A stretch of 7,051 bases of DNA from a virus (Duplodnaviria; Heunggongvirae; Uroviricota; Caudoviricetes). Shown here piece by piece: positions 911 to 3,900 of this stretch. The first letter of the stretch is position 1, and each line of letters opens with the position of its first letter. The notes beneath the pieces are model-generated. The model searched no databases. It had not been told where the DNA came from and saw only the letters and a program-made list of their open reading frames with translations. Location: IMG/VR virus record IMGVR_UViG_2600254997_000007; one strand, written 5' to 3'. A program made the translations under genes and the position numbers.

Positions 911-3900
911 TCAACGAATACTGATGCCGGAAGCGGCTTTTTTGGTCACAATCACCGTACAGTCGGTGATATTGCCTGCCCCCTGATTGCCTTTCTGGAA
1001 AATCTTAAACTCCAGAGTGACGCTTCCCCTGCCACTCGGCATATCAATAACCGCACTGTAGCTACCGGGAATGGCCCCTTTAGTTTCTCTGGATGCGATT
1101 AATACACCGTTTTTGCGAACTTCAAAACCATAACCCGTGTAACTTGTACCTCCCGGGTTATTACCACTTCCCGGATAGCTATACGCTATTCCGTTAAAGA
1201 TAATGGGCGGAATAATGATTTGACGGTCAAAGTTATGATCATCGCTGATGGTGACTGTAACCGTCCCGTTTGGTGTTTCCGTGTTACCCCACGTACCAGC
1301 CTGTTTCGGAAATGATTTGGATACAGCTTTAACGAAATCCCCTCTGACTTGGGTCGCCTCCAGCATGCCCCTAATCGTACAGTTTTCATTTACCGTGACA
1401 TTGTTGAGCGTCCCGGCGTTCGCATTCACACTGCCACTGATATCCGCATTTTTAGCAGTCAGCTTTCCGTCCGGTGTCAGGGAAAATGCCGGTGGATTGC
1501 CACCGCTGGTAATGGTGGGGGCCGTCAGGCGTTTCAGGAACACGTCATTCATGAATATCTGGTTGCCCTGCGCCACAAACATCGGCGTTTCATTCCCGTT
1601 TGCCGGGTCAATAAACGCGATACGGTTAGCGGCAACCAGAAACTGGCTCAGCTTGCCTTCCTCCGCGTCCTCCATGCTGAGGCCAATACCCGCGACATAA
1701 TGTTTGCCGTCTTTGGTCTGCTCAATTTTGACGCCCCACATGGCATTCCATTTATCGTTAGCGTCCTTCCACTCTTTCGAAAACTCCTCCAGTTTGCTGG
1801 CGTTATCTTCCGTCAGCTCAAAGTTTTCCAGCAGTTCCTTGCCGAGATGCGTTTTATTGATCAACCCTTTATAAAAATTCAGATAACCTTCCGCATCATC
1901 GCTCGCCCGACCGACGGCCTCCACAAATGCCGATTTACCAACGGTGTTCACGCTGCGGATATAAAAGTAATAATCATAACCCGGCTTAATATTGCTACTG
2001 GCGGCTATCCAGTACAGCGCCGTACCAAGATAACGCGCGCTGGTTTCAACCTGCCTGATATCGATAATCCGCTTTTCCGAGAACCAGAACTCAAACTGCA
2101 CCGTCGGGTCATATACAGCCAGTTTCGGGACCGCTGTTATCTGAAAATACCCTGGTATCAGTTCAATAGTGACAGGCGCTGCCGGTGCCGCAATCCGGAA
2201 CGATACCGATGCCGGATCGCCCTGCTGCCCCCACGCATTTACCGCCCGGACCGTCAGCCTGTAGTTCCCCAGCGCCAGTTGCGTGAAGCGGTATGTGGTT
2301 TCCGTCGTCCGGGCCGTGCTGACCAGCCGCTCACTGCCGTCATCCGCTGTCACGGTCAGACGGAGCAGGAAGCTCACGCCCTTCACCACCTTCGGCGTGT
2401 CCCATCGAGCCAGCACCTGATACTCCCCGCTGTCTGCAGTGACTTCGGCAGTCAGGTGCTGCACCGCTGGCGGCGTGACACCGTTCACCGTGCCACTCTG
2501 TTCGCCGTCAAAGTGCGCCCCGTTATCCACGATGGCCTCTTTCTCCGGCACATGCTGCACGGCGGTGATGGCATACGTGCCGTCGTCGTTCTCACGGATA
2601 CTCACGCAGCGGAACAGTCGCTGGCGCAGCGTCGGCAGCTTCAGCCCCCATACGCTGTATTCAGCAACACCGTCAGGAACACGGCTCACTTTTACCTTCA
2701 CGCCGTCGGTGACGGACTGAACCTCCACGCTGACCGGATTGCCACTTCCGTCAACCAGGCTTATCAGCGTGGTACCGGAGGATGGCAGCGTGATTTCACG
2801 GTCGAGCGTCAGCGTCCGGGTCTGGCTGTTCACCGCCAGCACACGACCACCGGTGCTGATACCGGCATAGTCATCATCGCAGATTTCAATGACATCGCCC
2901 GGTACATGGCGAAGCCCTTCGGCACCCACGCTGAAGTCCACGGTCTGCGTTTCCAGCAGTTCTGTTTTAATCAGCCACAGCCCGGCGCGGTGCGCCTGCC
3001 CCCGGCTGGTACAGCCAAAGGCATCCATCTTCGTGACGTTACGACCGTAACGGAGAATGGCCTGCGTATCTTCAACAAGCTCTGTCGCCGTCTCCCAGCC
3101 GTTATCCGGGTCAGTCCAGTTCACCTCAACGGCATTATGGCGGTCTTTCAGGGCGCTGAAGCTGTAGCGGAACGGCGCGCCATCATCCGGCATCACCACA
3201 TTACTGCGGTTATAGGTCCACACCTTATCCGATGGCCGGTCCTGCACGAACGTCAGCGTCTGCCCGTTCCATACCGGCATACAGCGCATCGCAGAGCAGA
3301 AATCACTGAGCACATCCCACGCCTTGCGCTGTGTGGTCAGGTACGCATTACAGGTGATGCGCGGCTCCGTGCCGCCAAAGCCGTCCGGCACTGACTGGTC
3401 GCAGTACTGGCCGATGACATACAGCGCCCATTTGTCCACATCCGCCGCACCAAGACGTTTCCCCATGCCGTAGCGCGGATGGGTCAGCATATCCCACAGA
3501 CACCAGGCCATGTTGTTGCTGTATGCTGGCTTAAACGTTCCGTCCCAGATACCGCTGTATTGCCGCGTCTGCGGGTTATAGTTCGACGGCACCTGCAGAA
3601 TACGCCCGCGCAGATGATAATTACGGCTCACCTGCTGGCTGCCGAACTGCTCCGAGTCCACCTGCACGCCGACCAGTGCCGTGTTCGGGTAGCACTGTTT
3701 CACATCGATGATTTCGGTGTATGACGACCAGAGCGTTTTGTTCTGCAGCTGGTCTGTGGTGCTGTCCGGCGTCATCCTGCGCATCCGGATATTAAACGGG
3801 CGCGGCGGCAGGTTACCCACCACCACCGAGGCCAGATACTGCGAGGTGGTTTTACCCTTAATGGTGATGTCTTTTTCCGTCACCCAGCCACCGTTACGCT

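Follow-up and report, generated by a model that had tools for sequence, protein, structure and literature searches.

Gene J of the lambdoid prophage analysed here is, with high probability, a mosaic in which a backbone of the lambda/434 type runs to about codon 980 and is followed by a 434-type specificity block, carried together with the downstream terminator and the gene lom and expected to recognise OmpC. The stretch of DNA under analysis, hereafter the window, has a length of 7051 bp and makes up the whole of contig ALNX01000076.1, part of the draft assembly GCA_000754045.1, with repeats at both ends. The original prediction had marked positions 911–2000, described as the 3′ third of J, as a likely exchanged receptor-binding module of distinct base composition. 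The feature is real and the prediction is right in its core; it was too broadly delimited, and the allele concerned is a common one that has already been described.

Gene context of the window

The window holds the tail-tip module (H′, M, L, K, I, J and lom) of a lambdoid prophage (Table 1). The tail order H-M-L-K-I-J-lom, taken from open reading frames and called genes, is colinear with that of lambda, 434, mEp460 and the E. coli strain E2348/69. At its low-coordinate end the contig falls inside ISEc13, of which the transposase C-terminus is found at 24–350 (Pfam Dimer_Tnp_Tn5). This end of the element is 100% identical to annotated copies, about 30 of which are present per E2348/69 genome. 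Its terminal repeat, CTGTCTCTTGATCAGATC, adjoins lom and resembles the IS50 inside end. The element cuts lom at the junction 361/362, with loss of the C-terminal strands, and what remains of the gene matches Pfam Ail_Lom over profile positions 1–162 of 199 (E = 1.7e-95). The terminator consists of a 10-bp stem with 5 GC pairs and a T-run in the terminator scan, and 434 and mEp460 each have a terminator annotated at the corresponding place.

Table 1. Features of the window, with positions, strand and the evidence for each.
Feature	Position	Strand	Evidence
ISEc13 (IS4 family) end	1–361	+	identity to annotated copies; Pfam; junction sequence
lom, Ail/Lom outer-membrane protein, 434-type allele, 3′ end missing	362–841	-	Pfam, identity
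Intrinsic terminator between J and lom	869–892	-	terminator scan
J, tail-tip / central-fibre gene	911–4325	-	ORF list, Pfam, identity to lambda/434
434-type specificity module, J residues ~980–1137	911–1385	-	breakpoint, identity, Pfam, GC3
FNIII-2 / alpha-helical shaft / beta-prism fibre part of J	1386–2225	-	Pfam Ig_J_second, Phage_Tail_Tip
Mosaic patch, further allele of FNIII-2 / shaft region	1725–2225	-	identity profile
I	4386–5027	-	
K	4925–5668	-	
L	5674–6372	-	
M	6382–6711	-	
3′ end of tape-measure gene H	6711–7040	-	

If repaired, J would comprise 1137 codons; as sequenced it is divided into two open reading frames, 4080–4325 (81 codons) and 911–4060 (1049 codons), and its stop codon lies at 911–913. 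Matches above the gathering threshold were obtained for six Pfam families (FNIII-A_GpJ, Phage-tail_3, Ig_J, Ig_J_second, Phage_Tail_Tip and Ig_GpJ_C), and this full domain series, together with the position in the tail module, identifies J as a lambda-like tip attachment protein (gpJ). Its first 2100 nt share 94–99% nucleotide identity with J of lambda and 434.

J does not run as one unbroken frame of ~1130–1140 codons, because an extra T at 4090 shifts the frame of this minus-strand gene after codon 78 and leads into a TGA stop at 4080–4082. In the alignment, the site reads CCGG-T-AGGG in the window and CCGGAGGG in lambda and 434. Every one of the 4090 complete E. coli genomes with the stretch lacks the extra T (best match 97.5%, spanning 120 of 121 nt), and an exact-match probe of species-representative genomes did not find the frameshifted sequence. 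Either the T is a private mutation that inactivates the gene, or it is a draft-assembly or sequencing error. Barring a sequencing error at this site, full-length J is probably not produced from this contig, and the frameshift therefore makes J function in this strain doubtful. With J frameshifted and lom cut, the prophage may well be defective.

The window's prophage is almost identical to one in the EPEC O127:H6 strain E2348/69, which carries nleH/cif. [quoted passage not shown] The E2348/69 copy differs in that its 1137-aa gpJ is intact and lacks the extra T, its lom is complete, and stf follows downstream. Over window positions ~6300–7051 (M and the 3′ end of H), identity to E2348/69 is only 49–60% in a MAFFT alignment, which suggests a further mosaic boundary in M/H upstream of about 6300, subject to possible alignment-end effects.

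A 434-type specificity module at the 3′ end of J

Positions 911–1385 encode the end of the beta-prism fibre and the Ig-like RBD, and are the sole truly non-lambda portion of J. Around window positions 1400–1360, nucleotide identity to lambda drops from ~95% to 40–50%, and the switch from ~95% to ~50% is completed within about 30 nt. Across the module, identity is 89–94% to 434 and 94–99% to mEp460. The boundary was placed by a maximum chi-square test on the triplet of window, lambda and 434, which drew on 300 sites where lambda differs from 434 and the window matches one of them. A single breakpoint fits best between 1385 and 1373 (Fisher p = 5e-24). Downstream of it, 170 sites are 434-like and 14 lambda-like; the upstream part, with 71 lambda-like and 45 434-like sites, is ordinary fine mosaic.

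At the protein level, the switch begins at lambda residues ~970–985, beyond which identity is 30–42% to lambda (50-residue windows) and 88–96% to 434. The C-terminal ~150 residues thus depart from lambda's LamB-binding domain, as the original prediction had stated, and the peptide that it quoted is present in the translation of the minus-strand reading frame 911–4060. Its further statement that the upstream part is near-identical to lambda holds at 94–100% identity, except in a patch at residues ~700–850, where identity is 82–90%. In a tblastn search with the RBD (last 162 residues), identity was 91.4% to 434, 97.5% to cdtI and 2B8, and 38.3% to lambda. High identity to lambda J residues ~985–1132 was not found, so the module is not a lambda-type LamB-binding RBD. 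The gap positions relative to lambda are the same in the window and in 434, with insertions after 1011, 1051, 1078 and 1099 and a deletion of 1109–1114 (lambda numbering).

The extreme C-terminus matches PF12421, the Pfam family of tip attachment protein J receptor-binding domains, with 92.5 bits (cut-off 26.2) over profile positions 1–134 of 135, and phmmer aligns the RBD through the chain ends with 9wca, 8xcj and 8iyk (query residues 1–188). The module therefore encodes the same domain in a divergent allelic form, not an unrelated one. The lambda gpJ RBD (PDB 8iyk, 8xcj, 8xck), which binds LamB, belongs to the same PF12421 family, sits at the same fibre-tip position and can be aligned end to end with the window's domain (E = 1e-41), from which it differs by an amino acid identity of only ~36–38%, by five indels, and by a GC3 of 0.62 against 0.48. 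The best PDB match is A8 gpJ713 (9wca/9wcb; E = 9.5e-49), a different RBD class with ~41% identity to the window in the RBD. These two structures bear the name ‘A8 gpJ 713’ and probably represent the A8 chimera with which Brodel et al. (2024) targeted OmpC. No solved structure of a 434-type RBD was found in the PDB copy searched, the closest entries being A8 gpJ (~41%) and lambda (~36%).

RBD classes are discrete. Among 50,697 phage records, 74 carry an RBD at 90–99% amino acid identity to that of the window and 169 one at less than 60%, with none in between. Besides 434, cdtI and 2B8, the 90–99% class includes Stx1a/Stx2c phages (96.3%). The window RBD belongs to the 434 class, with at least 90% amino acid identity, the same indels relative to lambda, and a linked 434-type lom.

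Independent recombination of this part of J has been described before. In a study of 1207 J homologues, residues 960–1132, termed the ‘specificity region’, were found to recombine independently of the rest, with lineage-defining indels at about 1012, 1048/49, 1077/78 and 1107 and with incongruent phylogenies of J and of its specificity region (Maddamsetti et al., 2018; PMC6646904). The set of nine related lambdoid phages in that study includes mEp460 and cdtI, both of which carry the window's RBD type. The breakpoint in the window, at residue ~980, falls within the module so defined, and the indels fall at or near its hotspots.

Expected receptor of the 434-type allele

A receptor other than LamB had been proposed for the window, and the core of that proposal is supported by the finding of a different Ig-like RBD allele; what had gone unrecognised is that the allele is of the classical 434/h434 type, for which the receptor is OmpC. 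When the J gene of lambda is replaced by that of 434, the phage is retargeted to OmpC, the receptor of 434 (PMC3509688; PMC11101478). Natural C-terminal gpJ variants, A8 and 1A2, have been grafted on lambda J and shift it from LamB to OmpC (Brodel et al., 2024; PMC11338833), an engineered swap of the same kind as the natural one in the window. OmpC is also used by phi330, a long-tailed EHEC phage with a third RBD class (PMC12502783).

Cryo-electron microscopy of lambda has shown that the Ig-like RBD is a trimer and that its four distal loops enter the LamB trimer. On binding, the base of the RBD spreads, the beta-prism fibre is twisted, the helical shaft flips and the tail tip opens (PMC11101478). 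A comparable course of events can be proposed for the window. The first ~980 codons of J supply a backbone of the lambda/434 type, and the 434-type specificity region from codon ~980 onward forms a single inherited unit with the terminator and the 434-type lom that follow it. If the fibre tip works as in lambda gpJ, its trimeric domain would reach with the distal loops into a porin trimer of the outer membrane; for the 434 type this porin is OmpC and not LamB. Binding to the porin would then trigger the rearrangement of the fibre and the opening of the tail, with ejection as in lambda, given a full-length J. On the strength of class membership, we infer that the window's own allele binds OmpC.

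Phage 434 is the closest characterised point of reference. Its J protein (UMO75286.1) shares with the repaired window J the length of 1137 aa, the gap pattern relative to lambda and the high identity in the last 162 residues, and it is likewise linked to the terminator and to a similar lom allele (93% amino acid identity). The window allele differs from it by 15 amino acid substitutions from residue 960 on, and the patch at 1725–2225 is only ~88% identical; the frameshift in J and the interruption of lom by the insertion sequence are further differences.

These substitutions bear on an alternative that we regard as improbable, namely that the module is 434-like and its allele recognises something other than K-12-type OmpC, either a particular OmpC variant only or another porin. 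They include D1049S, D1050Y, R1061S, G1099R and R1115G, which adjoin loop indels. Most substitutions in the RBD lie within a few residues of indel sites and so in probable loops, a placement judged solely by nearness to indels. Because several of the 15 are charge-changing and close to loop indels, the range of OmpC variants accepted, and even the receptor, could differ from that of 434. There are precedents, since the A8 and 1A2 chimeras accept different OmpC variants (PMC11338833), and single mutations in the receptor-binding protein switch phage 21 between LamB, OmpC and OmpF (PMC11336670). Against this stands the identity of 91–97.5% to 434, cdtI and 2B8, with no class gap separating the window from them. 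A literature search found no receptor assays for mEp460, mEp332, PhiR49, cdtI or Perceval. The chance that the substitutions have moved the allele to a distinct natural subset of OmpC variants, or to another porin, seems slim; if they had, the 434 class would represent a graded series of porin-variant specificities instead of a single specificity.

Base composition along J

The GC values on which the original prediction was built are correct, with 0.477 for 911–1300, 0.501 for 1300–2000 (0.46–0.55 locally in 300-nt windows) and 0.595 for 2100–4000. Over the full 7 kb, a GC below 0.50 in 490-nt windows is confined to those that begin at 561–1111 and at 1511–1731. These are two troughs, one centred on the 5′ part of lom, the intergenic region and the 3′ end of J, and the other on ~1500–2200. 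The two were compared with the J genes of lambda, 434 and mEp460 (a comparison set that does not include Perceval and the Stx2c phage), and they proved to be of different kinds (Table 2).

Table 2. GC content of J in the window and in three phages, by gene segment.
J gene	nt 1–2100	nt 2100–2950	nt 2950–end
Window	0.595	0.514	0.477
Lambda	0.590	0.535	0.552
434	0.591	0.529	0.483
mEp460	0.591	0.531	0.476

The question is whether the entire shift over 911–2000 could arise from the intrinsic architecture and amino acid composition of J, with no exchange of a module. For ~1386–2225 this reading holds. GC over gene positions 2100–2940 is reduced in all four genes (lambda 0.535–0.537, 434 0.529–0.531, mEp460 0.531–0.532, window 0.514), and GC3 over this middle segment drops alike in all of them, from ~0.72 to 0.60–0.64. 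The deepest dip, at 1701–2000, coincides with the helical shaft, where Lys, Glu, Asn and Asp are abundant and GC2 is 0.32. The region is 81–97% identical to lambda at the nucleotide level. Since lambda, 434 and mEp460 share the drop and identity to lambda is retained, the low GC of ~1386–2225 offers no evidence of exchange, and it is intrinsic to the J genes of the lambda/434/mEp460 group.

The last ~470 nt of J behave differently. Here GC stays at 0.55 in lambda, whereas it drops to 0.48 in the window, 434 and mEp460. Likewise, GC3 beyond nt 2940 is 0.621 in lambda, as against 0.481 in the window, 0.475 in 434 and 0.481 in mEp460. For 911–1385, where lambda shows a GC of 0.55 and a GC3 of 0.62 and the window 0.48 for both, intrinsic composition fails as an explanation, and it does not account for the abrupt fall in protein identity to lambda or for the significance of the breakpoint. 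As an account of the entire interval it is very unlikely. The low GC of the last ~475 nt, synonymous sites included, instead reflects a separate evolutionary history of the module.

The reservation attached to the original prediction, that lambda itself might share the GC drop, was thus justified for gene positions 2100–2940 and unfounded for the last ~470 nt. Of the interval proposed as exchanged, only 911–1385, about one seventh of J, has been exchanged, and the sequence from ~1386 onward is lambda-like. Since lambda shows the same drop over two thirds of the flagged interval, a fall in GC inside a gene is by itself no evidence that a module has been exchanged.

Extent and inheritance of the exchanged block

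The exchange had been taken to end with the 3′ end of J at 911. The non-lambda block continues past the J stop codon, through the terminator and lom, as far as the junction with the insertion sequence at 361/362. In the nucleotide identity profile, the intergenic region and lom are of the 434/mEp460 type and near-random relative to lambda, and the Lom protein is 93% identical to that of 434 as opposed to 39% to that of lambda. In a lambda h434 imm21 hybrid that has been sequenced, DNA of lambda origin reaches as far as J nt 2115, and DNA of 434 origin runs from nt 2133 through lom; the host-range allele defined by genetics is therefore this same 3′ block. The hybrid maps host range to J nt 2133 onward plus the downstream genes, and not to the RBD alone. 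The J specificity region, terminator and lom of the window are inherited as one 434-type block (362–1385), with the same linkage as in the h434 hybrid, and Lom allele and J tip type may be co-inherited generally.

The module is found at 90–99% nucleotide identity in 2088 of the 5426 complete E. coli genomes (about 38%), and the lambda-type version in 98 of them (about 2%), at 99% or more in every case. The 434-type J tip is hence about twenty times commoner in these genomes than the LamB-type tip of lambda. The lambda-type genomes among the matches listed are laboratory lysogens such as DE3 strains. At 90–99% identity, the 434-type module is carried on differently mosaic backbones, in 434, mEp460, cdtI, Stx phages and E2348/69.

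Further upstream, the patch at 1725–2225 is about equally far from lambda, 434 and mEp460 (79–93% nucleotide identity), and its best match in a sequenced phage isolate is 88.8%. On the other hand, positions 911–2225 are 99.4% identical to the intact gpJ of E. coli FDAARGOS_1059 and O111:H2 12A, both finished genomes, and 98.7% identical to that of E2348/69. As the 99.4% matches are to prophage gpJ in finished genomes and phages reach at most 88.8%, the patch allele has so far been seen in prophages only.

It could be argued that the C-terminus diverged in place from a lambda-like ancestor, by point mutations under diversifying selection and with no recombination. The domain is indeed homologous to that of lambda, with its PF12421 match and the end-to-end alignment to 8xcj, and rapid evolution of host-range residues is known (PMC6646904). 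Such gradual change is, however, at odds with a loss of identity from ~95% to ~50% within about 30 nt, with divergence that runs on through non-coding DNA and lom, with the presence of the same module (90–99%) on differently mosaic backbones, with the lack of intermediates between the 60% and 90% classes, and with the incongruent phylogenies of J and its specificity region (PMC6646904). We reject divergence without recombination, to which we attach very little probability, on account of the discrete classes, the sharp breakpoint and the continuation of the block through lom.

An assembly artefact, in which two prophage J copies were collapsed into one draft contig, might be suspected, as the contig is flanked by repeats on both sides and E. 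coli genomes carry a median of 2–3 J-like places, but its likelihood is negligible and we reject it, given that the finished E2348/69 chromosome has the same junction, with 95–100% identity from L to lom, and that 911–2225 recurs at 99.4% in two other finished genomes.

Implications

Modular swapping of the J tip has already been documented and is already used in engineering, and the window adds nothing beyond that picture. The one new point beyond Maddamsetti et al. (2018) is that the co-inherited block reaches through lom. For the prophage itself, the analysis places the tail tip in the OmpC-type (434) class as opposed to the LamB-type, a result of little weight beyond annotation. This OmpC-type class is the common one in E. 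coli.
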